A stretch of 37,638 nt of DNA from Candidatus Thorarchaeota archaeon (lineage in GTDB: Archaea > Asgardarchaeota > Thorarchaeia > Thorarchaeales > Thorarchaeaceae): assembly GCA_048884965.1 (NCBI GenBank), contig JBHLQH010000034.1, forward strand, positions 1 through 37,638, in the 5' to 3' direction. The notes beneath the pieces were generated by a model. The model was not told the DNA's origin, searched no databases, and saw only the letters and a list, made by a program, of their open reading frames with translations. The translations under genes and the position numbers were made by a program. Below are positions 26 to 20,751 of this stretch, one piece after another. Each line of letters opens with the position of its first letter. Position 1 is the first letter of the stretch.

Positions 26-56
26 TGTTATACTTGCGTTAGCCATATTTGCTATT

Positions 57-809
57 TCATTCTGATTTTCTGAAGATGTAAATAGCCCAGTTAATCGTGT
101 TTCGCCCCCATTTCAAGTAGATTTCTTTCGCTTTCCTGGTTCTTTCAAGTAATTCTTGATTGTCTGGATCATCTCGATGGGAATGAATGTAATCATCAAC
201 AGCCCACCACTGGAGGGTTTCATAATGGTCCCAATCATCCTTGTTGGATACAATTGTATAGATACAAGTAAGTCCCAAGTTCTCACCCAGACGTACATTC
301 TCCTCGTGTGGTCGAAAGGACTCGCGAGTCATACCAGTCAATTCGAGATATTCGGAATCCGGTTCTTGCAGCCAAAATGGCTCTCCAACGATAACAAGTC
401 CTCCTGATTTGGTCATTTTCATGAGTGCTTGGAGAGTTCCCACATGATCCTCGAAGACCCAGCTTGCTCCTAAACACATAGAAACGTCAAACAGATCTCC
501 GGAGTCGGGTTGATACATCGCTCCATCCATCTCAATGAATCTCAAATCAGTATCAGGAGTTCTCTCAGTGTGCTTTTTCTTACAATCCTCAATGCAATAT
601 GGAGAAAGATCGACTCCCACACCTGATATCTCATATTTCTCTGCCAACCTTACCAAAACCTCTCCCTTACCACACGCGATATCAAGAACTCGAGAACCAC
701 TAGGTAGATTGAGAATCTGGTAAAAACGTTCAATCTTCTCTTCGTTTAGAACATTGCATATCAAATGATGTTTATGTGTGATAGCAAAGTACTTCCATTT
801 ATCCATCAT
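57..809 (-). CDS. Class I SAM-dependent methyltransferase
   Basis: Motif I VLDIACGKGE, GVDLS, FDVSMCLGASW, KSGGLVIVGEPFW. ATG at 809 follows a GGAG RBS (the track starts at TTG 821). Confidence 0.9.
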   Translation of the reverse strand: MMDKWKYFAITHKHHLICNVLNEEKIERFYQILNLPSGSRVLDIACGKGEVLVRLAEKYEISGVGVDLSPYCIEDCKKKHTERTPDTDLRFIEMDGAMYQPDSGDLFDVSMCLGASWVFEDHVGTLQALMKMTKSGGLVIVGEPFWLQEPDSEYLELTGMTRESFRPHEENVRLGENLGLTCIYTIVSNKDDWDHYETLQWWAVDDYIHSHRDDPDNQELLERTRKAKEIYLKWGRNTINWAIYIFRKSE

Positions 810-5447: not shown

Positions 5448-6336
5448 TGAGCATATACTCCTTTACTCCATTAGGATAGCCATCCAGACATCCATACTCA
5501 TTGTAGCCTTGCTTTCTGAAGAAGTCTAGATTCTGGAATGTAAAGCAAGCTGTCTGTCCTGCAATGCACCCTTTTTCCTTAGCAAGCGACTCAGCAGTAG
5601 TTAGAAGGTCTTTTCCATATCCCTGGTTCTGGTACTTTTCATGAACCCAGAACGCTTCTATGTTCATGGTTCCGAGAGTAGTATATCCACGAAGTCCGCC
5701 GATGACTTGTTCTTCCTCATTCTTGATGACCATTCTGATTCCAATCTCGGGATAGATATGACGGAGATCTCCTAGCTTATCTATGCTGTCTAGTCGCATT
5801 CCTTCGTGGATTGGTCCTTCAGCTTCTTCCGGTGTCACCTTATGGACCGAAAAACGAGCTGGGTCTTTCTTCTTGGGTTCGATATCTGTTTCATCTAATC
5901 GTTTCATCAGGATGATCTCAGTAATTCCCTCAACATATCCATCATAGATGGCTTTGATCTTGTACCCTACTGCTTGGTAGAACTCAGGTCCTTGAAACGA
6001 GAAGGTGTAGGTCTGAGATACTACACATCCATTCTTCTTTGCTAGTCTTTCAGCTTCTAATAGGAGGTCTCTTCCATATCCCTGTCTTCTATATCTCGTA
6101 TCAACCCAGAATGTTTCAAGATATTGCGCCCAGTAGAGAGTGCTTGTTTGAATACCACCAACGATATTTCCTTCATGATCTTTGAGGATTAGATTTAGCC
6201 ATTCTTCTGGCTTGTTGAACTCCTCATTTGTCTGTTTCAAATTATACGATTCAAGACCCGCCTCAAAGTCCTCCAATTCTTCATTTGTCGGGTCAGTTAT
6301 AACTGAAAATCGGTCTGAATCGGCATGCAATTTCAT
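5434..6336 (-). CDS. Tandem two-domain GNAT N-acetyltransferase
   Basis: Two homologous halves: FWVDTRYRRQGYGRDLL...TFSFQGPEFYQAVGY and FWVHEKYQNQGYGKDLL...CFTFQNLDFFRKQGY. Confidence 0.9.
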   Translation of the reverse strand: MKLHADSDRFSVITDPTNEELEDFEAGLESYNLKQTNEEFNKPEEWLNLILKDHEGNIVGGIQTSTLYWAQYLETFWVDTRYRRQGYGRDLLLEAERLAKKNGCVVSQTYTFSFQGPEFYQAVGYKIKAIYDGYVEGITEIILMKRLDETDIEPKKKDPARFSVHKVTPEEAEGPIHEGMRLDSIDKLGDLRHIYPEIGIRMVIKNEEEQVIGGLRGYTTLGTMNIEAFWVHEKYQNQGYGKDLLTTAESLAKEKGCIAGQTACFTFQNLDFFRKQGYNEYGCLDGYPNGVKEYMLIKKF

Positions 6337-6496
6337 TGTACTACCTTCTTTTCTGATATCTTAGCTTGGCACTCTGTTCATCCTACTTAATATCTTACTA
6401 ACTACGCCATCTTTGCAGATACATACTCTGAGCCTATCGTAGCAACGAATAATCTGTGATATTCAATCCTTACCAAATAGAAACGATACTGAATTC

Positions 6497-7552
6497 TCAG
6501 ACGAATTTACCGTATCTGTAGAAGGTTTCTTCCCCCACTACAATCTCTCCCTCCGACATACTCTTGATCATATCCACATGAATGGCACTTTCATTGGTGC
6601 CATTGCACGCCTTGAGAGCTTTTCCTAGTGCACAGTGGATAGTATCTCCCATCTTCTCATCGAATAGCATATTCATACTGGATCTCTTAATGCCTCTATT
6701 CATCCCAATAGCGATCTCACCAAGGTGGCGTGAGCCATTATCAGTGTCAAGGATCGATTTCAGACTCCTTTCTCCTTGCTCGGCATCATAGTTCACAACT
6801 GCGCCCTTCTCAAATTCCAGTTTCACGTCCCTGATGATTCGACCTTGATACATGAAAGGAACATCAAAGAAGATCCTTCCCTCCACTGAATCCTCCAGAG
6901 GCGAGGTATACACCTCCCCACTTGGCATATTATATCTACCATCCTCAATCAGCCAGACTCTTCCAGAGGTCTTTGCATAGAGATCAGTATCAGGTCCCAG
7001 AAGGCGAATATCATCGTATTGATTGAGTCTTTCACTCAATATCTTCATCTCTCTCGCGATTTCCTTCCAATCGATGAGGATGGCCTCATACACGAAATCT
7101 CTGTACTCTTCGAGACTCATTCCTGCCTGTTGGGCGAGAATTTCACAGGGATGTAATGTGTCACACCATCTCTTGCTGAGGCTCAATTCAAAGAGTGACT
7201 CTCTTGTCCTTGCTCGTAAGGCAAGTTTCTCGGAGCTAGCTTCAGCCAGAACGTTCTCTCTTCTAGGAGCATCAATCCAGATTATCACATCACTGGCTTC
7301 GAGAGCCGCCTTGTAATGCCTTGGAAGTAGTGAGAGAGTCTCATTGTCTGCATACTTGAGATAGGTGCAAAGGGCTTCATCGCTTTCTAGTAACACAATA
7401 TAGTGGGCTTTCTTCTTGGCTATCTCTCCGGCCAAGGCGATTATCAAATCATCTGATTCCTGACCCGCACGAATCAGCACCATATCCCCTTCAGTGACTT
7501 GAGTTGACCAATTCACGATAACATCAGCATGTTGAGTGATTCTGGGATCCAT
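6497..7552 (-). CDS. Aminopeptidase, M29 (AmpS/AmpT) family
   Basis: NMPSGEVYTSP, LGEIAIG, LFDEKMGDTIHCALG, NESAIHVDMI. Confidence 0.93.
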   Translation of the reverse strand: MDPRITQHADVIVNWSTQVTEGDMVLIRAGQESDDLIIALAGEIAKKKAHYIVLLESDEALCTYLKYADNETLSLLPRHYKAALEASDVIIWIDAPRRENVLAEASSEKLALRARTRESLFELSLSKRWCDTLHPCEILAQQAGMSLEEYRDFVYEAILIDWKEIAREMKILSERLNQYDDIRLLGPDTDLYAKTSGRVWLIEDGRYNMPSGEVYTSPLEDSVEGRIFFDVPFMYQGRIIRDVKLEFEKGAVVNYDAEQGERSLKSILDTDNGSRHLGEIAIGMNRGIKRSSMNMLFDEKMGDTIHCALGKALKACNGTNESAIHVDMIKSMSEGEIVVGEETFYRYGKFV

Positions 7553-7665
7553 TTTCAGTTCGCCTACTTCTCTCATTGATACATACTTACCGAAGATGTA
7601 TTTAGACGTATACCCACCTCAAGTCTTAAGAGATATTTCAGACTTAACAATAGTAAGGTGAAAGT

Positions 7666-8142
7666 ATGACGAACAAGCTAAATGTAGGCGACAAAGCTCC
7701 AGACTTCACACTTTGGGAAGCCCCTGGAAAAAGTGTCACATTGACTGAAGAGCTCAAGAACGGTCCTGTTGTTCTTGTATTCTATCCCGGTGATTTCACA
7801 TCGGGTTGCACCAAGGAACTCTGTACCTTCAGAGATATGCTCACGGGCTTCAATGATATGGGTGCACAGGTTCTTGGGATATCGGTTGATGGCATATTCA
7901 GTCATGCAGCATTCAAGAAAGCTAATGATCTACAATTCCCCCTTCTTTCTGATTGGGAAAAGACAACCATTCGCGACTATGATATTGTATTTCCAGATCT
8001 CGCAGGGATGAAGGAAGTAGCAAAGAGATCCGTGTTTGTCGTAGATACTGATGGTACAATAGCATATATTTGGATAAGCGAAAATCCCGGAATACTACCC
8101 GCGTTCGATGAAGTCAAGCAAGCTGTAAGCAAATTAAGCTAG
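7666..8142 (+). CDS. Peroxiredoxin (AhpC/TSA; BCP/PrxQ-type CxxxxC)
   Basis: PGDFTSGCTKELC (PxxxTxxC with a second Cys five residues later), KRSVFVVD; AGGTGA RBS. Confidence 0.93.
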   Translation: MTNKLNVGDKAPDFTLWEAPGKSVTLTEELKNGPVVLVFYPGDFTSGCTKELCTFRDMLTGFNDMGAQVLGISVDGIFSHAAFKKANDLQFPLLSDWEKTTIRDYDIVFPDLAGMKEVAKRSVFVVDTDGTIAYIWISENPGILPAFDEVKQAVSKLS

Positions 8143-8149
8143 AAGAGTG

Positions 8150-8390
8150 TCACAGGGCTTTTCCAAGATAGTACTTCTTGATATCATTCGGATACCCTTC
8201 GAATACTCCAAAGACTTCATACCCGAGTTTTTGGTAGAATCCCGGTGCTTGAAAGGAGTAGCTTGAGGTCTGGCAGGAGATACAACCCTCTTCCTTGGCC
8301 ATGCGCTCTCCTTCGCGTACAAGTCTAGTGCCAATCACCATCGTTCATCTTATGAAGCAGGATATGACTAGAGGTTTCTATATCTGTCAT
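8150..8390 (-). pseudogene. Truncated/internally deleted GNAT acetyltransferase remnant
   Basis: 8150-8341 encodes only the C-terminal third of a GNAT domain (IGTRLVREGERMAKEEGC...SYSFQAPGFYQKLGYEVFG...GYP), homologous to both halves of 5434-6336. A GAGG RBS plus ATG at 8390 opens an out-of-frame 21-aa stub. Confidence 0.65.
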
Positions 8391-8450
8391 GGATATCCTC
8401 AGCACTCGTTGCAGCCTTTGCGAATGTCTATGGCATGATATCCAAGCACA

Positions 8451-8810
8451 TCATTCAGACTCTTCGTCATTCTTCTTGAGAAGTCGATAGGCTATGGCTC
8501 CTGCCGCAAGCGCTCCAACTCCAATCATGGCACCCAATACATGTGGTGCGTCTTCGACTAGGTGCTCTACTGGGTGTGTATGTGGATTACGCTTATCCTT
8601 GTGGATAATCCAGTGCTCTCCAAGGTCATAGGCATGTAGTGCCATGCATGCACATCGATACTGTCCCCTCATGCCTAGCTTTGGTTGTCCCCAGATAGAT
8701 GGTTCGAAGCAATCGGGAAGCTTTGGGAGCTGTTTCTTGGTGAACTTGATGTCCTTGTTGTAGGGAACATCCTTGAAGAATTCATGGATATCTAGCACGG
8801 CACTCACCAT
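8451..8810 (-). CDS. Conserved archaeal hypothetical protein, His-rich, with C-terminal membrane anchor
   Basis: GQYR...LHAY...HKDKRNP...PVEHLVEDAP followed by a hydrophobic helix and a charged tail. Confidence 0.75.
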   Translation of the reverse strand: MVSAVLDIHEFFKDVPYNKDIKFTKKQLPKLPDCFEPSIWGQPKLGMRGQYRCACMALHAYDLGEHWIIHKDKRNPHTHPVEHLVEDAPHVLGAMIGVGALAAGAIAYRLLKKNDEESE

Positions 8811-8867
8811 TTGATACTTCTTGACTTGGTCTGTAAGAATATAGAGTTTGAGCTTTGCACAACGGAA

Positions 8868-9791
8868 TCATTTTAGGTGGCTATCGATTATCTCTTGGCG
8901 AAAATCAGGGAAGTATTCCCATTCGCCCAAAATCAGCTGATCTGCTATCACGCTGTCTGGGATTATTTGAAGAATGCGTTCTTGCAGATTGACAACCTCC
9001 TTCGCATTTGGAGTCTGAAACACAAGTAGCAACTCGGGTCTATCTGCTATTCGCCAACTCAACCAATAGCTCTCTGGAAACTTCTCCAAGAGTAGACTCT
9101 CCACGGACAGCTGGGTCCCATCTGACATCTCTTCGACTCTCAAATTGAAGATTACAACTATTCCTTGGCTTACTGACCCCGGATTGATGAGCACAGTTTC
9201 GCTAACAAATCCGTTTGATCTGAGATAGTCAAGTCTTTTTCGTACACTTGGAACTGATGCATTGACTCTCTCAGAAAGCTCACTCAATTGCATTCTTCCA
9301 TTCCTTTGCAATGCTTGTAGGATTCTCCAATCTATTTTCTTCAGACTATCCAGTGGTTTCGATTTGGGTGGCATTGTGTATGACAATGGAGGAAGAAGTG
9401 GAACTATTCTCAGATTTGTTATGCTAGGAAATGTTCGGACATAGTCAATGACTCCCATCATTTCCGCATTGTTCCTGTAGACCATCAATGCTATTGCCTC
9501 TGATTGGAACCCCATAGACATGGCAAAGATATTCTGATGATTTCCAAGTCGATTTATCTCCTCTTTGGACCATTTCTGTGCTAACTCAAGAAAAATAACT
9601 CCGAAACTCGCACCAAGCGCCTCAAGAGGGATTTGAACATCGAAGGCTACGATGACATTCTCTTGAACTAGTTTCTCAACTCGTTTTTTGATAGTGTTGA
9701 CTGAAACATCATATTTCTCAGCAAGTTCTGTGAATGAAGCCCGACAATTCGCACTCAGTTCGCCAATGATGATTCGATCAAGAGAGTCCAC
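8868..9791 (-). CDS. Lrp/AsnC-family transcriptional regulator with two tandem HTH modules
   Basis: MDSLDRIIIGELSANCRASFTELAEKYDVSVNTIKKRV and LKKIDWRILQALQRNGRMQLSELSERVNASVPSVRKRL; GTG start. Confidence 0.88.
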   Translation of the reverse strand: MDSLDRIIIGELSANCRASFTELAEKYDVSVNTIKKRVEKLVQENVIVAFDVQIPLEALGASFGVIFLELAQKWSKEEINRLGNHQNIFAMSMGFQSEAIALMVYRNNAEMMGVIDYVRTFPSITNLRIVPLLPPLSYTMPPKSKPLDSLKKIDWRILQALQRNGRMQLSELSERVNASVPSVRKRLDYLRSNGFVSETVLINPGSVSQGIVVIFNLRVEEMSDGTQLSVESLLLEKFPESYWLSWRIADRPELLLVFQTPNAKEVVNLQERILQIIPDSVIADQLILGEWEYFPDFRQEIIDSHLK

Positions 9792-9930
9792 CTATCTTCG
9801 CCTTCTTTTTCCAATTTTGAATCTGCGAGTGCAAGAATAGTAATCATTCCTTATAGATATGTGAGGTTTTTGCACCTACTTCCTGCCAAGCTTTCTAGTA
9901 TTTCCGATGATCAATCATGCTTGACCTACA

Positions 9931-10170
9931 ATGTCAACGAAAAATAATACTTTGAATATTCCAATGGAACCTGATTCTGTTCAGAGTCAATCTCAATGGA
10001 AGCTAATTGCTATGACTTTGGTATTCTCAATACTAGTATGCTGGATCGCACAAGAAGTAGTATCCGCACTAGGACTGGTAATTCCTCTTCCAATCACAGT
10101 GATTTTACATCTAGTATACTTTGTCACTGTCACTACTTTCTTCATAATCCGACATTACAAGGAGATTTAG
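9931..10170 (+). CDS. Small two-TM membrane protein
   Basis: Two hydrophobic segments; divergent from the Lrp regulator; start may be 9964. Confidence 0.6.
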   Translation: MSTKNNTLNIPMEPDSVQSQSQWKLIAMTLVFSILVCWIAQEVVSALGLVIPLPITVILHLVYFVTVTTFFIIRHYKEI

Positions 10171-10174
10171 GAAT

Positions 10175-10339
10175 ATGGATCCTCTCTCAGGGTTTACCTT
10201 GTTTCTTGTGTCAGTCGTCATCTGTGCAATCGCAGGTGGAGCAGTAAAGAGAAGTAGCTACAGAGTAAACCGAATGGGACTCTTGGCATTTCATATACTC
10301 TATGTATTCGGAATGATACTAGCTATGATTTTCTTGTAA
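10175..10339 (+). CDS. Small two-TM membrane protein (54 aa, absent from the ORF track)
   Basis: Manual translation MDPLSGFTLFLVSVVICAIAGGAVKRSSYRVNRMGLLAFHILYVFGMILAMIFL*; AGGAG RBS at 10160-10164; starts 4 nt after the previous stop. Confidence 0.6.
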   Translation: MDPLSGFTLFLVSVVICAIAGGAVKRSSYRVNRMGLLAFHILYVFGMILAMIFL

Positions 10340-10374
10340 AACCAGATGTGCAGACTAGAAGGTCTGCACGATTT

Positions 10375-10806
10375 CTATTTTGTAACGCTCCTTAGAATCA
10401 TACTGGATAGGATTGAGAGAGCTCCTGCAATCAGATTCATCAAATTAGTATAGTCGCTGATGATTGCCATTGGATTGTACATTCCTTCTAGAAGGAATAT
10501 GAGAATAATCATTCCAATACCTGCGAGGAAACCAATTGAGCTTTGGTTTGCGACGCGTTTGGATGCTGTGACAATAATAAGATCATAGTCTGTATATCTA
10601 TCCACTTCGGTGTGATATTGTGTAAAATGCACATTTCCAAGTTCTCTAAAGGCCCAAACTGAAGCAAAGAGCCAGACCAGTGCAAACAGTCCTCCCATAA
10701 AGGGAATCAATGAGTAGGAGCTCGGATCACTTACGATTAGGCTTAGTCCTGAAAGAATCGCACACACAAGATACAATGTTCCACCGATTGCAGTCTTAGT
10801 CTTCAT
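10375..10806 (-). CDS. Hypothetical four-TM membrane protein
   Basis: Four hydrophobic segments; ATG at 10806 (track start GTG 10815). Confidence 0.65.
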   Translation of the reverse strand: MKTKTAIGGTLYLVCAILSGLSLIVSDPSSYSLIPFMGGLFALVWLFASVWAFRELGNVHFTQYHTEVDRYTDYDLIIVTASKRVANQSSIGFLAGIGMIILIFLLEGMYNPMAIISDYTNLMNLIAGALSILSSMILRSVTK

Positions 10807-11032
10807 TGGAACCACTCCAACATCACACTCGACGTGGCGGCTGTTGATATCACTTGCTTGTATATCATTTCCAAAATCGTGAATAGAATTCGGTTGTCAA
10901 GGTAGCTGGTCGACATTTGACGATTCTTTGACCAATTGATTTGCAAAGTATATATGCAGGAATGCATTCAAGGAAGGAAGCTTTGAACTTGCACTCTATG
11001 TTCCTAAATCAATTTCCTCTTGAGGCACGACA

Positions 11033-12682
11033 ATGAGCACAGTTAAGAAAAACAAGTTTGTCTTGGTTTCGCTCGTTATGACAATCATTCTGGCTGGGTT
11101 GACCTTTGGTAATCTTCCTGGGCCTACAACCCCCACTGGCATCCAAGTAATTGATGGTATCACGTACAATTTTGATCAGTATCGGTCCGTCAATCATGAA
11201 ATGCTAGCGATTTTTAATTACTTGGATACCATTGTCAGTAGCGATTACCAAGGATACGGTGAATGGAATGGATGGAATGCAGACCACTTTGCAGGACTTC
11301 ATCACTATGTTCTTGCATTCATGGCATATGCCACAGCACAGCTGTTCGAGTCCACTCCAGGATATAGAACAGACTTCTATCGAAATTTCGCCTTTGATTT
11401 GATAGAGAAAATGAACACATCTGAAACAGAATGGGGTACGAATAGCATCCAGTACAAGGAGTGGACGAATCCGAACTATGGCTTTGTCGACTACTACTAT
11501 GATCCAGCTAATCCGGCGAGTACATCAGACACCTCCAAACTGTACGTGGGCGACTTTAGAGGCCCTGCAAATATAATGTGGACCGGACATTTTGCTCTCA
11601 TGGAGGCTCTCTATGAGCGGAATTTCAATACCGGTGAGTTAACTGATGAGATGAGTTGGTTTATGAATGACTGGAACACATCCCTATTGACTGATGGCTA
11701 TGGTAATCCCAAAGATGGTGGAATCTGGGGCACTGGACTGATACCATGTGAGCCATACATCGTATTTGTCCAATGTAACTCAATTCCAATCTTCTTCACA
11801 GAGCTCTATGACAATATGTATGGGACAACCTACATGGAAGGTGGCATGTGGGACTATGGACTTGATTTTATCAATGATGACATGCAGGACGATTATGGTC
11901 TCTTTACTGATGGGTACTATGTCATGCAACCAGCTTCTTACGAGTATTCAGGTGAAGGTGCACACCAACAATTCCCCGGACAATCAATTGATCGTATTGT
12001 TAGAGATGGACGACCAAAGGTTTCATCCTATGGCACCGCATGGTCTCTAGCATTCCTAGAATACACTCAGCCAAATGCAAGTGCGACAGACTATCCAGTA
12101 TTCCTCCAACACTATTCAAAGGATATCTCCAAAGATATGATGTACATGATGGACTCATACAACAATCCTGGGGGATTTGGCACCTATGATATCTTGGGCA
12201 CTATGTTTTCCATCCAACTTGCCAAACAAATGGGCGACTTTGCCACAAGAGATAGACTGCAGAACTTCATGTATTCACTGTTCAACAAGGTATGGAGTCC
12301 GGATGGACGTATGTTATACTATGATACATCATCTCTTGAACCGTTCCTGCAACCTGTGCTTTCATTCGGTAAAATCTGGTCCGAATCGCAAGTGTCGATT
12401 AGGGATCTTGCGACTCCACGTTCAGCTGAATTCTGGGACTATCCTTACATAGGCTCAGCAGATGACGATCGTATATGGGTCTATCAGGCGGAATGGGATG
12501 AGCACCATGAAGCATTCATCTTGAGTATCAAGGTGGATCAGACCGCAACCCTTGTCTTTAGCAACTTCGAATCCACTCCAACAGCCTATGCAAGCGGCAT
12601 AAGTCTAGGGGACCTTACGCCATCTGGCGAGGACTATACAATGACCTTGAGTCCAGGAGTATACCAATTAGTGATCATGTGA
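11033..12682 (+). CDS. Linalool dehydratase/isomerase (LinD/Ldi)-family protein with N-terminal signal or anchor
   Basis: Colinear LinD-like motifs: HYVLAFMAY, DLIEKM, NIMWTGH, IPCEPYIVFVQCNS, LYDNMYGTTY, SSYGTAWSLA, LAKQMGD; hydrophobic N-terminus; GAGG RBS. Confidence 0.82.
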   Translation: MSTVKKNKFVLVSLVMTIILAGLTFGNLPGPTTPTGIQVIDGITYNFDQYRSVNHEMLAIFNYLDTIVSSDYQGYGEWNGWNADHFAGLHHYVLAFMAYATAQLFESTPGYRTDFYRNFAFDLIEKMNTSETEWGTNSIQYKEWTNPNYGFVDYYYDPANPASTSDTSKLYVGDFRGPANIMWTGHFALMEALYERNFNTGELTDEMSWFMNDWNTSLLTDGYGNPKDGGIWGTGLIPCEPYIVFVQCNSIPIFFTELYDNMYGTTYMEGGMWDYGLDFINDDMQDDYGLFTDGYYVMQPASYEYSGEGAHQQFPGQSIDRIVRDGRPKVSSYGTAWSLAFLEYTQPNASATDYPVFLQHYSKDISKDMMYMMDSYNNPGGFGTYDILGTMFSIQLAKQMGDFATRDRLQNFMYSLFNKVWSPDGRMLYYDTSSLEPFLQPVLSFGKIWSESQVSIRDLATPRSAEFWDYPYIGSADDDRIWVYQAEWDEHHEAFILSIKVDQTATLVFSNFESTPTAYASGISLGDLTPSGEDYTMTLSPGVYQLVIM

Positions 12683-12691
12683 GGTGTAGTT

Positions 12692-13324
12692 ATGACAGAA
12701 GAGCACGAAACAAAGATTGAAGAAATTCCAAAGACCTCTATCCTGAATAGACTTCATCTTGAAAATCGACCTAAGGCGCTCGGGACTCTCTTTTTTGGCA
12801 TCCTTGGCGCAATCATCTATGTAGTAGCATCGCTGATTCCAATGCCCTATATGATGATTAGCATTCTCAAGTTTGGTCTGCTTCTTGGAGTTGTTATAGT
12901 CGCACTTACTGGCGCAATCCGAGGTCCAGTCGCAGGTTTCCTTGCCGGGTATCTTGGAGAGATATTCTATGGTCTACTTGTCTATAATGTAGTCGTAGCA
13001 ATGACATTCCACGCAGCTGCATATGGCATTCTTGGACTTATCACTGGTCTTGTGACTTATGACTTCACGAATGGCAAATCGCTAGCAAAGCTCTCGGTGC
13101 TGTCTATAGTTGGATTCCTGTTCACAGTATTGCTGAGCGTGGTAGTCGGGATAGTCATTGAGGGCTACTCGGTCATGGCAGCGATAGCTTTTAGCATGCT
13201 TCCACTTATCACCTTGGGCTTACCAACTCTACTCTTTCTTACTCCCGTAATGGCAAGGCTCTGGTATGGATTCATGCAAAAGATGAAGGCAATCGCATCT
13301 GCAGAAATCGAGTCTTCAGAATAG
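12692..13324 (+). CDS. ECF transporter S-component-like membrane protein
   Basis: 5-6 TM helices; VALTGAIRGPVAGFLAGYLGEIF signature; GAGGTG RBS overlaps the upstream stop codon. Confidence 0.75.
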   Translation: MTEEHETKIEEIPKTSILNRLHLENRPKALGTLFFGILGAIIYVVASLIPMPYMMISILKFGLLLGVVIVALTGAIRGPVAGFLAGYLGEIFYGLLVYNVVVAMTFHAAAYGILGLITGLVTYDFTNGKSLAKLSVLSIVGFLFTVLLSVVVGIVIEGYSVMAAIAFSMLPLITLGLPTLLFLTPVMARLWYGFMQKMKAIASAEIESSE

Positions 13325-13330
13325 ATGAAT

Positions 13331-13363
13331 GAAATGGGGTCTATTCCCCATTTCTTTCTGTTT
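13331..13363 (+). terminator. Stem-loop plus T-rich tract closing the LinD-like/S-component operon
   Basis: GAAATGGGG-TCTATT-CCCCATTTC perfect 9-bp stem followed by TTTCTGTTT, 6 nt after the stop at 13324. Confidence 0.65.
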
Positions 13364-13411
13364 CCTATGTTTGGCAATCTTTTTTCAATCACTTCAACTT
13401 CACTGAACAAT

Positions 13412-13831
13412 ATGAGAAGTCATACCAAATATCTAACCCTCAATGTTCCTTCGCGAATGGACTTTGTTCATATCACTCCACAAGTTCAAGCAGCTGTGAA
13501 TGAGAGTGGCGTGAAAGAAGGTCTCTGCCTCGTCAACTCCATGCACATTACCTCCAGTGTATTCATCAACGACAACGAGAGCGGGCTCCACTCAGACTAT
13601 AAGCGATGGCTAGAGGATTTAGCTCCGCATGAGCCTACCAGTCGCTATGAGCACAATCGTACGGGAGAGGATAACGGGGATGCCCATCTAAAACGGCAGA
13701 TCATGGGCCGCGAGGTCGTTGTTGCCATAACAAACGGGAAATTGGACCTTGGCACTTGGGAACGTATCTTCTATGGCGAATTCGATGGTCACCGGAACAA
13801 GCGATTGCTCATCAAGATAATCGGTGAGTAG
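13412..13831 (+). CDS. yjbQ: YjbQ/UPF0047 family (secondary thiamine-phosphate synthase)
   Basis: [42 protein letters not shown]; real start most likely ATG 13412. Confidence 0.92.
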
Positions 13832-16202: not shown

Positions 16203-17267
16203 ATGATGTCTGAAGAGATCCCTTTCCTGAGCGTTCCATCAAAATATGGTGAATTGATCCGAAAAAGGCTCTTAGCGCTAGCCCTGTTCGATACGAACTA
16301 CAAGATAGTATCAGAGGAGAAGGTCCTCTTCTTCCCCCTCAGAGAACACATCGATATCGAACAAACATTCCCAGAGCTACCTACTTCTGAGTACTCTGTT
16401 GGAAGAAGGAACTTTCCTGAAGCATTCGATGGACCAAAGACGCTTTCAGATGCCCTCAAGGGGAGATTGACCGAGAAGGAGGTAGAGCTTCTTCCTCGAG
16501 CATACGATTTAATCGGTGATATTGCTATACTAGAGATTCCTGAGGAGCTCGTGGAACATAGGTTCGAGATTGGCCACGAGTTTCTCAAACTCCGCCCGAA
16601 TTTCACAACAGTTCTGGGCAAGAATAGTGCGATATCTGGAACTCTTAGAATCCGAGAGTATGAGCTCTTGGCAGGAGCCGATAAGAGAGATACAATTCAT
16701 GTCGAATATGGTTGCCGTATTGCAGTAGACCTCTCAAAGGCATATTTCAGTCCTAGGCTGCTTGAGGAGCACAACAGAATCGCACGGCAAGTTGTGGAGG
16801 ATGAGCACGTCGTCGATATGTTCTCGGGCGTAGGTCCATTTGCACTCCATATCGCAAAGCGGACGAGGGCTACCATCACTGCAGTAGATATCAATCCTGA
16901 CGCGTCTAACCTGTTGAAACAGAGCATCCCTCTGAACCGCTTGGAGGGCACGATAGTTCCAATAACGGCTGACATTAGAGATTATACAGAGTCAAGCAAG
17001 TCTGGTTTCGCGGATCGCGTCATAATGAACCACCCGTCTGGTGCCTTCAATTTCATTGGCGAAGCATGCAAGTTGCTCAGAGAATATGGTGTGATGCACT
17101 ACTATGATTTCATGGGCGGCGAAGATCCTGAACAGGCACTATATGAAAAAGTCAAAAGGCTCATCGAAAAGTCAGGTCGAGCGATTAAGAAAACACTCCT
17201 GATACGACGGGTCAGAGATAGCGCGCCTTATGAGTATCACATGGTTCTCGATGCTATCATCTCATAG
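16203..17267 (+). CDS. trm5: tRNA (guanine-37-N1)-methyltransferase Trm5
   Basis: AYDLIGDIAI, TIHVEYGC...DLSKAYFSPRL, DMFSGVGPF, DINP, DRVIMNHP. Confidence 0.9.
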   Translation: MMSEEIPFLSVPSKYGELIRKRLLALALFDTNYKIVSEEKVLFFPLREHIDIEQTFPELPTSEYSVGRRNFPEAFDGPKTLSDALKGRLTEKEVELLPRAYDLIGDIAILEIPEELVEHRFEIGHEFLKLRPNFTTVLGKNSAISGTLRIREYELLAGADKRDTIHVEYGCRIAVDLSKAYFSPRLLEEHNRIARQVVEDEHVVDMFSGVGPFALHIAKRTRATITAVDINPDASNLLKQSIPLNRLEGTIVPITADIRDYTESSKSGFADRVIMNHPSGAFNFIGEACKLLREYGVMHYYDFMGGEDPEQALYEKVKRLIEKSGRAIKKTLLIRRVRDSAPYEYHMVLDAIIS

Positions 17268-17682
17268 TAAATACAATCTGGCAGATTATCTCCTGCTTGG
17301 GATTTCGCAGTTTCTCGATGAAATCTCGTCCAAGGTTTATGGCAGCCTTATCTGCATTGATCATGAGGGTCCGTGGACACTCGAAGGAACTGGTCCTAAC
17401 TACCATACTGGTACGATCTGAATAGGTAAGCCCTGGACTACCATGCCCGACGATTTCTTCCTTCATATCATCTATTGTCAATACAAAACGGATCTCAGTC
17501 TTTTCCAAGCGTGCCATGGCTTTGATGTCTTCTTCCAGCCTATCGAGGGTTAGCTCTGACCGTATGCCAATGATGCAGGTACCTTGAGGTGTAAGGAAGC
17601 CCTCACTCGTCACCTCTAATGTAGTCCTATGATCACCAACTACATTCTCATGACCAAATGCTCGGAAAGAAACAGAGCGCAT
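17257..17682 (-). CDS. DUF371 (COG2090) protein
   Basis: GHENV...HRTTLEVT...LTPQGTCIIGI, SMVVRTSSF..RTLMINADKAA. Confidence 0.88.
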   Translation of the reverse strand: MRSVSFRAFGHENVVGDHRTTLEVTSEGFLTPQGTCIIGIRSELTLDRLEEDIKAMARLEKTEIRFVLTIDDMKEEIVGHGSPGLTYSDRTSMVVRTSSFECPRTLMINADKAAINLGRDFIEKLRNPKQEIICQIVFTMR

Positions 17683-17740
17683 GAACTGACAGACCTCTCA
17701 ATGCTTTTATGACTGCATGTAATATAGACATTCGGTTCTA

Positions 17741-18418
17741 ATGTCCGATGATCGTCTCCATCAAGACAAGGAGCGGCTCATAGAGAGTCTAAAGGCTAGA
17801 GGATATCTTGTGAGTACGAAGGTCGAGAATGCGCTTCGGGTCGTCCCACGAGAAGAGTTCGTTCATCCTGAAAGTCGTAGCTATGCCTACCGCGACACGC
17901 CTCTATCAATTAGGCACGGACAGACAATATCTGCGCCGCACATGTGCGTAATCATGTGTGAGGGTCTTGATCTTGACGTTGGGATGAAGGTTCTGGAGAT
18001 CGGTGCGGGTTCCGGATACCATGCCGCGCTATGTGCGGAGATCATCGCACCCTCTGGAGCTGAGAATCCCGGACACATATACACGATAGAAATCGTTGAG
18101 AATCTAATCGAGTTCGCCCAAATGAATCTAGAGCGGACGGGATATTCCGATAGAGTTACGCTTGTTCATGGTGATGGCGGACTCGGGTTAGTACAAGAAG
18201 CACCATTCGATAGGATTTTCGTGGCTGCTGCTGCTCCATCTATCCCAGAGCCATTGCTTGACCAATTGGCTCCCGGGGGGATTATGCTCATTCCAGTTGG
18301 TTCTCCGGGGTTATATCAGGAACTGATGCTCGTTCTCAAGTCCCAAGAAGGTCAGATTACCAAGAGGCGATGGGGTGGAGTTGCCTTTGTGCCTTTGACA
18401 GGCAAATATGGATATTGA
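17741..18418 (+). CDS. pcm: Protein-L-isoaspartate O-methyltransferase
   Basis: VPREEFV, AYRDTPL, GQTISAPHM, VLEIGAGSGYHAA, APFDRI, VAFVPL. Confidence 0.96.
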   Translation: MSDDRLHQDKERLIESLKARGYLVSTKVENALRVVPREEFVHPESRSYAYRDTPLSIRHGQTISAPHMCVIMCEGLDLDVGMKVLEIGAGSGYHAALCAEIIAPSGAENPGHIYTIEIVENLIEFAQMNLERTGYSDRVTLVHGDGGLGLVQEAPFDRIFVAAAAPSIPEPLLDQLAPGGIMLIPVGSPGLYQELMLVLKSQEGQITKRRWGGVAFVPLTGKYGY

Positions 18419-19099
18419 TTATGTTGCGAGATGCAACGGGATTATGGTCAGTGTAACTGTATCCGAATCTGAGAGCTTGAGCTTCTTCCGAATATTCACA
18501 GGTGCAATGATCTCTAGGATATCCTCACTATGATGCGTACGTTGTGCAATTACGACAGCCGCCTCGACCTTATCATTGACCTTGACTCTATAGCATATCA
18601 CATCACCAAACGTCCTTCCCTCATGGGTGAACCCAGTAACGACCTGCGGAGGAGTGTGTTTCATGCGATTGATAGCCTTTCTTGAATCATCGGTTGTCAC
18701 TCTCACGTTCAGAGTACCCGGATAGGGCTCAAATCCAAGAGCCTTCCTGAAGCGATCAGAATACACCTCGACATAGTATGCTCCTTCTCCGATCCCATCA
18801 ACTATCACACCATGAATCTTGATCTCATCCTTTGGAGGTGCAAATGCAATCTCAAGTGCGCTGAATACCCGTAGCAGTTCATCTCTCCCTTGATTTGTGA
18901 TTTTCAATTGCATTCCATTGACGGTGTGTGCACGAATGACATAGCCCTTATCGACGCACTCTGCGATTCGGCGAGACGCTGTCTGTTGACTTATTCCGAG
19001 ATTCTTACCTAAATCGCTAGTCTTCAGCAATACGACTTCATGGAGGGCTCCATGTCGAGCAAGTGACAATAGGGTGAACCAAGTTTCAGGCTGAACCAT
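18419..19099 (-). CDS. ribK: CTP-dependent riboflavin kinase with N-terminal HTH (RbkR type)
   Basis: HTH LGISQQTASRRI; GIGEGAYY, GFEPYPGTLN, RTHH..ILEIIAP; start 19099 or 19108. Confidence 0.92.
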   Translation of the reverse strand: MVQPETWFTLLSLARHGALHEVVLLKTSDLGKNLGISQQTASRRIAECVDKGYVIRAHTVNGMQLKITNQGRDELLRVFSALEIAFAPPKDEIKIHGVIVDGIGEGAYYVEVYSDRFRKALGFEPYPGTLNVRVTTDDSRKAINRMKHTPPQVVTGFTHEGRTFGDVICYRVKVNDKVEAAVVIAQRTHHSEDILEIIAPVNIRKKLKLSDSDTVTLTIIPLHLAT

Positions 19100-19112
19100 C
19101 AGAATCATTCTC

Positions 19113-19754
19113 CTACGATGAATCCTTCTCCTGCATCCGCTCTTCGAATTCCCTGAGCTCATGTATCATCTTTGTCTGACGGACTGCATTAGTCACATCT
19201 CCTCTAGTTCTCTCAATTAAATTCCTCGCCACGTCACACTTCCTTCGTAAGTCTGGGACCAGTGCATTGGGGAAATCAAAGTCGTTCAGATTTTCTAGTA
19301 TGTTTTCCATAGAGGACAGTAGATTCACAGCCTTTGTGACATTATCCTCTCTCAAGCTCTCCAATACGGCTCTTCTCAGCTCTCCGACAGTGTCACCTAA
19401 TCCTGTCAAATAGGGCCTTGATGGGATATCGTAATCTACCGGAGGCGTTATCTCGCCCCGTTCAAGAATCGAAAGGATGTTAGCTGCTTCAGCAAGCTCC
19501 TGATACGCAGTATCCAAGATGTGCGTTTTCATCAGGAATTCGCTCTTCAAGAGCTCGTCCTTTGCTTGGATGATGATTGAATTGGCTTCTGCAAGGGACT
19601 TCTTTGCCTTTTCAAAATCTCCACGGTGCGACATCTTGATCGATTCAGAGCAATTCCTAACAGCAGTCCTGGCCAATGGAAGGACCTTCTCTCTAACGAG
19701 ATCATCTGCCTCAATCTCCTCTCTGATTCTATCCAGAACTCTCTCAAATCCCAT
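19113..19754 (-). CDS. Translin/TRAX family protein
   Basis: AYQELAEA, YLTGLGDTVGELRR, LRRKCDVAR. Confidence 0.9.
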   Translation of the reverse strand: MGFERVLDRIREEIEADDLVREKVLPLARTAVRNCSESIKMSHRGDFEKAKKSLAEANSIIIQAKDELLKSEFLMKTHILDTAYQELAEAANILSILERGEITPPVDYDIPSRPYLTGLGDTVGELRRAVLESLREDNVTKAVNLLSSMENILENLNDFDFPNALVPDLRRKCDVARNLIERTRGDVTNAVRQTKMIHELREFEERMQEKDSS

Positions 19755-19773
19755 TATCTTTCGCCTTCCTTCA

Positions 19774-20751
19774 TCATTTCAGTCGCTTTATGTGTTTTCT
19801 ACGAGCCAAGAGTATCACTCGGCTTTCAGCTTGTTCATCAATGAAGTAGTACCCAGTAAGTGCTGCCAGCTTCTCGCCAAAGGCTCTAATCTCCATTTGC
19901 GAGGGCGCGTTATCTGCATTAAGTCGGCCTCTTGACGATCCGAGGTACATATACCCTTTCACTTCAACAAAGTCTGGCTCGCCTCTTGTAATCATTTGCG
20001 CATAATTCCTGATATCATGCATATTGTGTCCTGCGACCATGGTCAGTCTGTTGACGGTTCTACAATCAAGGGACCTCAGGAGTTCCTGTGATTCCATCAA
20101 TTTCTCCCACGCGTCCTTTATCCCTGGTCTTAGTAGCTTGGAATGGGTTTCCTCGTCTGGAGCTGCCAATGTTATGTACAGCTGAGTGGGAAGTGACATC
20201 TTAGAAAGCACTTCTGGTCGTGTTCCATTGGTCACAAGAAAAGAAGTCATTCCCCTATTATGCACTTCATCTACCAAGTCACTCAGAAGTGGATACAGAG
20301 TTGGCTCTCCCGCTAATGAGATAGCCACATGCTTTGGCTCCCTTGCCTCAAGATACCTCTCTCTGTTCACCTTTGCTCCCGCATCTGGATTATAGCCTCC
20401 CAATGAACGTAGATTGGCCATTAGTGTTTCATCAAGTAGGTCTGATGGTGGGAGTACATCCTCAACATCCACTGATAGTTGGTCCCAGCTGATACCGATA
20501 TCACTTGGCGTCACTCGCCAGCAGAACTCACAATTCTGTGTGCATTTATCAACTACAGGAGTCATCTGTAGGCATCGATGCGACTCGATTCCATAGAACT
20601 TCTGCTTATAGCATACATCTCCATACAACAGGCTCTTCTTTTGCCACTGGCAGGCTTTGTATCCACCTCTAGATCCCAAGAGATGATAGCCCTGTCTTTC
20701 GAGCTTTGACTTAAGTTCAAGTGGCAAAGGATTTGGCAAGGTACTAATCAC
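19774..20751 (-). CDS. taw1: 4-demethylwyosine synthase Taw1/TYW1 (radical SAM)
   Basis: CYKQKFYGIESHRCLQMTP, CTQNCEFCWR, HVAISLAGEPTLY, FVEVKGYM. Confidence 0.96.
   Translation of the reverse strand: MISTLPNPLPLELKSKLERQGYHLLGSRGGYKACQWQKKSLLYGDVCYKQKFYGIESHRCLQMTPVVDKCTQNCEFCWRVTPSDIGISWDQLSVDVEDVLPPSDLLDETLMANLRSLGGYNPDAGAKVNRERYLEAREPKHVAISLAGEPTLYPLLSDLVDEVHNRGMTSFLVTNGTRPEVLSKMSLPTQLYITLAAPDEETHSKLLRPGIKDAWEKLMESQELLRSLDCRTVNRLTMVAGHNMHDIRNYAQMITRGEPDFVEVKGYMYLGSSRGRLNADNAPSQMEIRAFGEKLAALTGYYFIDEQAESRVILLARRKHIKRLK

Follow-up and report, generated by a model that had tools for sequence, protein, structure and literature searches.

What would an enzyme of the linalool dehydratase/isomerase family do in an Asgard archaeon, and with what would it work? 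This question is raised by one gene in the 37,638-nucleotide stretch of Candidatus Thorarchaeota DNA analysed here (the window), whose 549-amino-acid product (P0001) had been singled out from the sequence alone, in what we call the original prediction, as an exported relative of LinD (Ldi) from Castellaniella defragrans. Enzymes of the LinD type need neither cofactors nor oxygen to add water to unactivated C=C bonds or to take it away, and LinD itself, which forms a homopentamer (at the least a dimer), has myrcene, (S)-linalool and geraniol as substrates. To our knowledge, just two members of the family have been characterised, both of them betaproteobacterial. We find that the archaeal protein belongs to this family and that its locus points to a two-part machine handling hydrophobic alcohols or alkenes. 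The two-part arrangement is suggested because a small membrane protein that resembles vitamin transporters is always encoded directly after the enzyme and is predicted to bind it. Bare Ldi homology is not new in these organisms, as some orthologs are already labelled in NCBI as 'linalool dehydratase/isomerase domain-containing protein'; what is new is the architecture of the archaeal clade and its obligate partner. The features of the locus are collected in Table 1.

Family, fold and catalytic residues

The gene, present as a single copy in its own 4.09-Mb genome, encodes a true Ldi-family member, and its similarity to the family lies far beyond chance. A search with the Pfam Ldi hidden Markov model (HMM; PF18566), proposed earlier as a check, gave the protein 63.8 bits, where the gathering score is 26.1 (E 2.5e-17), and the family profile matched the LinD entries of the PDB at E 1.4e-16. 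The four motifs on which the original prediction had been founded are all present in the open reading frame (ORF) and follow the order found in LinD, while the LinD strings that it had set beside them (NIMYKGH, CEPDNYFVQCNS, AYTTAWTLA and LAREMGD) are those that phmmer aligns in PDB chains 5i3t and 5hlr.

We modelled the enzyme with AlphaFold2 from the alignment of 31 orthologs (A1), which gave a mean predicted local distance difference test score (pLDDT) of 90.5 and a predicted template-modelling score (pTM) of 0.90. The model consists of an N-terminal helix (residues 8-25), an all-helical barrel and nine C-terminal strands (472-548), and thus contains both the N-terminal signal or anchor and the additional C-terminal beta domain that had been expected. 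In a Foldseek search of the PDB the first 27 matches were all LinD chains (E 1.2e-14, template-modelling (TM) score 0.80 on the length of LinD), the next match following at E 4e-5. VIA-align superposed the model on LinD with a Z of 39.5 and a root-mean-square deviation of 2.5 Å over 347 of 363 LinD residues at 23-24% identity, and its best barrel outside LinD was YteR/GH105 with a Z of 22.7. The anticipated (alpha/alpha)6 barrel is therefore borne out by both programs. The C-terminal beta domain lies outside the range aligned to LinD and is kept in all Asgard orthologs, and in the Pfam scan of the enzyme it had no match.

Alignment and conservation likewise bear out the proposed retention of the Met, His, Cys-Glu and Gln-Cys active-site residues. 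Met182, His186, Cys239 and Cys248 do not vary among the orthologs (31/31); the two cysteines are the only ones in the 549-residue protein, with no further conserved cysteine column among the orthologs. The 2.5 Å superposition and the identical C-x8-C spacing together suggest that Cys239 and Cys248 may converge on one pocket. The two corresponding cysteines of LinD (170 and 179, or 171 and 180 in PDB numbering) must be reduced and are required for all of its reactions (PMC6600392). Across 44 full-length family representatives, bacterial proteins of 390-770 amino acids included, the motifs N-x-M-x3-H and C-E-P-x6-C-N are found in 42-44 members; by residue, the Met, the His, Trp337 and Asp402 are each kept in 42/44 and both cysteines in 44/44. 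Since nearly every relative that can be detected, those of bacteria among them, has these residues, the tetrad argues for LinD-type thiol acid/base chemistry and not for linalool or any particular substrate.

Other elements of the LinD active site are not shared. LinD is a pentamer with its active site at the subunit interface, and a Cys49-Cys102 disulfide (Cys48-Cys101 in mature numbering) caps that site and is essential (PMC6600392). In our family alignment and tree, in which P0183 served as a proxy for LinD (635 bits to 5i3t), the disulfide cysteines together with Asp39 and Tyr45 are confined to the immediate cluster of LinD and are not conserved in the Asgard clade; other members of the short clade likewise lack Asp39 and Tyr45. 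In what is a weak N-terminal alignment, the positions of Asp39' and Tyr45' correspond to D65 and Y72, which are Asp in 14/31 orthologs (Asn in 10) and Tyr in 14/31 (a gap in 15). The Asgard proteins also carry an insert 20-30 amino acids longer than that of LinD just before the helix that bears the Met and His. Hence the earlier likening to LinD holds at the level of the Ldi family, but the missing capping disulfide and a clade of its own in the tree set the protein apart: it is an Ldi-family enzyme that is not of the LinD type proper.

The family is rare, since an exhaustive search of 1.84 billion representatives returned just 65 proteins at E<=1e-3. A word-indexed search gave 219 clusters, the best 120 of which are all about 545 amino acids long and 52-78% identical; those of them that are named come almost entirely from 'Candidatus Thorarchaeota archaeon', a phylum of the Asgard kingdom Promethearchaeati, in agreement with the Asgard origin first suspected from the letters. 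More distant members (31-36% identity) bear Hodarchaeales and Helarchaeota names. Within a sample of 301 genomes from the phylum, the gene was found in 42/76 members of its own family, in 2/3 of a second and 4/21 of a third Asgard family (6/24 for these last two together), and in none of about 200 other genomes of the sample. A FastTree phylogeny groups the Asgard sequences, without exception, in a single clade (support 0.999) whose sister is a set of long bacterial proteins, with the LinD-size clade that contains P0183 standing apart (support 1.0). The locus therefore defines a coherent archaeal clade of distinct architecture. No characterised archaeal member had been known to the original reader, and our full-text literature search likewise gave no paper tying linalool dehydratase to archaea or Asgard, and none on the orthologs that NCBI labels with the domain.

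Probable membrane anchor, partner gene and predicted complex

The only hydrophobic segment of the enzyme is a helix of 17-20 residues at its N-terminus, preceded by Lys5, Lys6 and Lys8. By the positive-inside rule, this lysine-rich flank and the hydrophobic helix that follows would place the barrel outside the cell. Conservation among the 31 orthologs reaches at least 90% at N7, K8, T24, N27 and P29, and because this is unusual for a signal peptide, and because the segment is predicted to contact the partner described below, a retained anchor is favoured over a cleaved signal; the helix is probably an uncleaved membrane anchor. The bacterial relatives nearly all carry signal peptides, lipoboxes or MYXO-CTERM anchors, and LinD itself is periplasmic (PMC4791888, PMC6600392). 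N-glycosylation sequons, considered as a marker of outward exposure, were uninformative (3 observed against 3.8 +/- 1.7 expected), the conserved ones being N128 (31/31) and N215 (26/31).

Downstream of the enzyme gene lies a gene for a membrane protein that resembles the substrate-binding S components of energy-coupling factor (ECF) transporters. It scores 27.6 bits against Pfam PF07155 (ECF-ribofla_trS; cut-off 26.7), with 31.4 and 23.5 bits for the proteins of two other loci, L020 (a distant ortholog) and L021 (L and G numbers are our handles for loci and genomes), and 19.8 bits against TIGR04518, whose cut-off is 60. Its model (pLDDT 80.6) has six long helices, and the best 22 Foldseek matches in the PDB are all ECF S components (ThiT, RibU, FolT, PanT and BioY) at probability 1.0, but with E 0.02-0.8 and TM scores of 0.5-0.7.

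The pairing of the two genes is strict, and this co-inherited partner, of which the original prediction makes no mention, is the feature of the locus that tells most. In all the loci fetched (11/11 and 12/12), tblastn and ORF comparison show that the next gene downstream, in the same orientation, is an ortholog of the partner. Four of these loci come from two other Asgard families, in which the enzyme is 33-35% identical by blastp (35-38% in the phylum search) and all other neighbours differ. When a partner profile was scanned over the same 301 genomes, strong matches (E<1e-48) were found essentially just in genomes with the Ldi-like gene, with two exceptions taken up below. Wherever both genes stand on one contig, the partner is never more than 75 nucleotides from the 3' end of the enzyme gene, which holds for every complete locus in some 50 genomes, including tandem copies in G176 and G296 and second copies in G108, G124 and G209; in G158 the two genes are on separate contigs, apparently because the assembly breaks between them. 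Weaker matches to the profile elsewhere belong to other S-like proteins encoded by ORFs of about 360 amino acids. The bacterial Ldi-relative loci that we examined had no S-component-like neighbour, and a search for longer forms of the partner returned no enzyme-partner fusion, which is weak evidence. The idea that the partner is a split-off version of the four-helix membrane domain of Lis, the second characterised Ldi enzyme, was rejected, as hhalign gave a probability of 0.3% against the corresponding block of P0150.

In the genomes with additional copies the whole pair is repeated. It is tandemly duplicated at G176:C16 (L019) 6038-11962 and at G296:C361 7236-11883, with a module of a Fur/PerR regulator and a 1-Cys peroxiredoxin between the G176 copies, and the second pair of G108, G124 and G209 lies on another contig.

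Binding between the two products is supported by co-folding. With alignments of both proteins, the interaction prediction score from aligned errors (ipSAE) was 0.79 (runs 0.79, 0.77 and 0.80) against 0.00 for the best of three unrelated control proteins; the mark was reached by 58/80 solved complexes and 2/110 mismatched pairs, counts that apply here just roughly because the alignments used were our own. The runs share at least 89% of their contacts, and the pLDDT of the partner is at least 82. In the model, residues 9-29 of the enzyme anchor touch transmembrane helices 5 and 6 of the partner (TM5 and TM6), and barrel residues 363-373, 379-383, 404-418 and 431-435 touch its loops 47-63, 90-108 and 157-168. 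S components usually have their N-terminus inside the cell, and with this topology the contacted loops would be outward-facing and form the mouth for the ligand, which makes the predicted complex topologically self-consistent. From the up-down alternation of the helices, loop 362-383 would lie on the same barrel face as the N-termini of the catalytic helices. We know of no complex between an enzyme and an S component, so recall of a solved structure by the predictor is unlikely.

Table 1. Features of the enzyme-partner locus (window coordinates; residue numbers refer to the enzyme)
Feature	Position	Strand	Remarks
Ldi/LinD-family gene (P0001)	11033..12682	+	549-amino-acid open ORF
N-terminal hydrophobic helix, probable retained signal-anchor, N-in/C-out (residues 9-28)	11057..11116	+	AlphaFold2 helix 8-25; Kyte-Doolittle peak 10-28
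(alpha/alpha)6 barrel, catalytic domain (residues 27-468)	11111..12436	+	VIA-align model range 24/27..467/470 against LinD; Foldseek TM score 0.80
NIMWTGH motif (residues 180-186)	11570..11590	+	Met182 and His186 correspond by alignment to LinD Met125 and His129
CEPYIVFVQCNS motif (residues 239-250)	11747..11782	+	Cys239 and Cys248 correspond to LinD Cys171 and Cys180; C-x8-C spacing identical
SSYGTAWSLA motif (residues 331-340)	12023..12052	+	Tyr333 and Trp337 invariant in orthologs
Barrel surface predicted on the outward loops of the partner (residues 363-435: beta-hairpin, PGGFG loop, helix 403-415)	12119..12337	+	Interface in the complex model
LAKQMGD motif (residues 396-402)	12218..12238	+	Gln399 and Asp402 invariant in orthologs
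C-terminal beta-sandwich-like domain (residues 470-549)	12440..12679	+	AlphaFold2 strands 472-548, pLDDT 93-97
Gene for six-helix ECF S-component-like membrane protein (210 amino acids)	12692..13324	+	9 nucleotides past the Ldi stop; predicted partner subunit

Proposed mechanism and competing explanations

We favour, at a probability of roughly 60%, a surface-anchored, thiol-dependent hydratase/isomerase in complex with an S-component-like membrane protein. The uncleaved N-terminal helix would hold the barrel on the outer face of the cytoplasmic membrane, with the helix packed on TM5 and TM6 of the partner and the barrel seated on its outward-facing loops. There the enzyme would use thiol-dependent acid/base catalysis, free of cofactors, to (de)hydrate an alkene or allylic alcohol and/or to move a hydroxyl group in a 1,3-shift; an isoprenoid is our leading guess for the substrate. 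The partner would either import the product, possibly energised by an EcfA-A'-T module, or feed membrane-dissolved substrate to the enzyme, the direction of hand-over being as much a guess as the substrate. A stand-alone EcfA-EcfA'-EcfT module is encoded on contig C3 of the same genome, in addition to two dedicated Cbi-type systems, and energised uptake by the orphan S-like partner via this module is possible.

A fuller version, which we put forward tentatively and with some doubt, has an ECF-type S component taken over as the obligate membrane subunit of a hydratase/isomerase that works outside the cell and needs no cofactor. Such a machine would process hydrophobic isoprenoid alcohols or alkenes (for example the chlorophyll-decay series of phytol, isophytol and phytadiene) on the cell surface of Asgard archaea in anoxic sediment and hand them on directly, into the membrane or out of it. 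The substrates first named for the enzyme, phytol, geranylgeraniol and farnesol, are plausible candidates. The original prediction is supported at the level of the family; the retained residues, being family-wide, argue for the chemistry and do not point to a specific isoprenoid. In 5/8 wide loci of the Thorarchaeota type, no more than about 3.5 kb separates the pair from a gene for isopentenyl phosphate kinase (IPK; NF040647, 161-177 bits), which offers a weak isoprenoid hint.

Several observations weigh against the surface-anchored complex and its isoprenoid substrate. As to substrate, the tetrad is family-wide while activities are known for just LinD and Lis, and the hint from IPK is weak because the loci in question belong to one family and share synteny by descent; the IPK of the genome studied here is on contig C1 (G000:C1:150698-151483) and not by the pair, nor is one near the pair in distant loci. 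As to the enzyme, because the capping disulfide is missing and Asp39' and Tyr45' are not conserved, the architecture of the pocket, and perhaps the oligomeric state, would differ from those of LinD. As to the partner, its assignment as an S component is marginal by sequence (27.6 against 26.7 bits) and weak by Foldseek, no ECF module (EcfT/EcfA) adjoins the pair in any of 23 loci, and a strong partner match stands without a detected Ldi-like gene in G185 (a truncated match) and in G212 (two fragments of 75 amino acids). As to the complex, the controls behind the comparison of 0.79 with 0.00 were natural proteins, which may or may not reside in membranes, and enzyme and partner were aligned without pairing of their sequences. 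S components transport by toppling, and a domain of 520 amino acids docked on one may be incompatible with that movement.

The same scaffold and chemistry could serve a non-isoprenoid substrate, with an extracellular vitamin, cofactor or micronutrient precursor converted into the form that the partner binds and imports. All characterised S components import vitamins or micronutrients, those that match the partner best in structure among them; the tetrad occurs in many uncharacterised bacterial proteins of varied context, which leaves the substrate range of the family open; and the stand-alone EcfAA'T module would be at hand in the genome. We nonetheless hold a vitamin or cofactor precursor to be unlikely. 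Both enzymes characterised in the family take monoterpene alcohols or alkenes as substrates (PMC4791888, PMC6600392), and no vitamin-pathway gene is conserved beside the pair, the YjbQ/UPF0047 gene standing next to it in this genus alone.

Rather improbable in our view is that the enzyme modifies the isoprenoids of the cell's own membrane (unsaturated archaeol precursors, polyprenyl or dolichyl carriers, quinone side chains), with the partner extracting or presenting the lipid and no catabolic or uptake role. An accessory function agrees better than a core lipid one with the distribution of the gene, which was found in just 42/76 genomes of its family and in hardly any other Asgard lineage. 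Membrane anchoring and the complex model, in which partner helices meet the anchor and outward loops the barrel, would suit work on membrane lipids, as would the difficulty of squaring a large docked domain with toppling transport. Exporters of the ABC-2 or MacB/FtsX type, which handle membrane-embedded substrates, come after the pair in one distant genus, and some loci show synteny with IPK, but neither the ATP-binding cassette (ABC) nor the IPK neighbours are conserved between clades.

We consider it very unlikely that the barrel is a non-catalytic lid, an enzyme-derived binding protein that captures substrate outside the cell for an S-component transporter. The predicted seat of the barrel on the S-component mouth and the loss of the capping disulfide and neighbour-subunit residues of LinD would agree with such a role; the invariance of Met182, His186, Cys239 and Cys248 down to 31-38% identity, with the cysteines the sole conserved ones, is hard to explain without catalysis. 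Scarcely credible, finally, is a carbohydrate-active (alpha/alpha)6 enzyme (a glycoside hydrolase (GH)105/GH88/GH76/GH127-like hydrolase or epimerase) that merely resembles LinD: an extracellular location and a C-terminal beta-sandwich are common to many glycoside hydrolases, and the barrels of GH105, GH76 and epimerase enzymes reach Z 20-23, but LinD lies far above them (Z 39.5 against 22.7; Foldseek about 1e-14 against at best 4e-5), the sequence matches the Ldi family alone with no GH family HMM match, and the LinD-family catalytic residues are kept.

Genomic surroundings and relation to known systems

The surroundings of the pair vary between lineages. In the window, an ORF for a UPF0047/YjbQ protein ('secondary thiamine-phosphate synthase', 13325-13831) begins on the base after the partner stop, an arrangement shared just with the same-genus genome at L007; its conserved part starts from about residue 30, which probably puts the true start further downstream. 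A gene for a multi-pass membrane protein of 146 amino acids (10375-10815, minus strand) stands divergent to that of the enzyme; it is not conserved beside orthologs and has no Pfam family and a sub-threshold NCBIfam match to a 'FILTED domain' (24 bits against 40). Farther along, at 16203-20751, are typically archaeal genes for a Trm5/TYW2 methyltransferase, DUF371, PCMT, a CTP-dependent riboflavin kinase with a MarR domain, and a radical-SAM wyosine-formation (Taw1-like) enzyme.

In many genomes of the Thorarchaeota type, a divergent Fur-family regulator and a 1-Cys peroxiredoxin of 215-229 amino acids (AhpC-TSA and 1-cysPrx_C) adjoin the pair (L014 8363-9652, L015 7671-8990, L017 4308-5636 and L019 8476-9675) in a module that resembles the PerR-type oxidative-stress modules. 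We considered the peroxiredoxin as a redox helper of the catalytic cysteines and rejected it, since it is a cytoplasmic 1-Cys enzyme with its own Fur/PerR regulator and is absent at distant loci and at the locus in the window. The IPK genes lie 1-4 genes from the pair, at L014 10664-11482, L015 10444-11262, L016 9570-10388, L018 3120-3938 and L019 4258-5076, and in these five related genomes they stand beside an unannotated ORF of 268-273 amino acids. In the one distant Asgard genus mentioned above, genes of ABC exporter type follow the pair on the same strand (L020 2419-5022, L021 8798-11159 and L023 3816-6147); one genome has an ABC ATPase and an ABC-2 permease, and the two others an unknown small ORF, a MacB/FtsX permease and an ATPase. 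These were tried as an ECF module and rejected, being of the ABC-2 and MacB/FtsX exporter types.

Set beside LinD of C. defragrans 65Phen (PDB 5g1u, 5hlr and 5i3t), the Asgard enzyme shares the Pfam family, the fold, the equivalents of Met/His and Cys/Cys at identical spacing, the AYTTAW and LAxxMGD motifs and, by prediction on its own side, an extracytoplasmic location. It differs in length (549 against 397 amino acids), at the N-terminus, which is probably an uncleaved membrane anchor but in LinD a Sec signal that is cleaved off, in the extra C-terminal beta domain of 80 amino acids, in lacking the Cys49-Cys102 disulfide and conserved equivalents of Asp39 and Tyr45, and in the obligate S-component-like neighbour, which is absent from LinD-type bacterial loci. 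Lis of Thauera linaloolentis 47Lol, a membrane-associated Ldi-family enzyme that is active just when reduced, bears a fused N-terminal block of four transmembrane helices, and its catalytic domain is predicted to lie in the cytosol (PMC4791888). Its catalytic domain is similar in size, and it shows that the Ldi family can work at the membrane; the Asgard enzyme, by contrast, has one transmembrane helix, a domain predicted to face outward and a separate six-helix partner.

The closest relatives in the tree, bacterial Ldi-domain proteins of 520-610 amino acids (for example P0147 and P0149, MYXO-CTERM proteins of Polyangiales), form its sister group, carry the same catalytic motifs and are exported, but they are 27-31% identical, end in C-terminal sorting signals or carry lipoboxes, and have no S-component neighbour. 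A further bacterial family member, P0144 (532 amino acids; Logan contigs L027 and L028), lies near genes for a flavin monooxygenase, an enoyl-CoA hydratase, an acyl-CoA dehydrogenase, an aldehyde dehydrogenase and an Fe-alcohol dehydrogenase, a cluster of catabolic look that resembles acyclic-terpene utilisation. The partner, for its part, is like ThiT, RibU, FolT, PanT and BioY a small six-helix membrane protein, just above the cut-off of ECF-ribofla_trS, and differs from them in its low identity (14-21%, at TM scores of 0.5-0.7) and in having no adjacent EcfT/EcfA. We know of no arrangement in which an S component is strictly coupled to an extracytoplasmic enzyme.

The chemistry of LinD-type enzymes is prized in biocatalysis and is relevant to anaerobic terpenoid turnover. 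If the predicted complex is real, it would widen the known roles of S-component proteins, offer a handle on how sediment Asgard archaea process hydrophobic isoprenoids, and supply new, probably differently gated, hydratase scaffolds. Should an S component indeed have been recruited as the membrane subunit of this enzyme, the pair would be the first enzyme-S-component machine.

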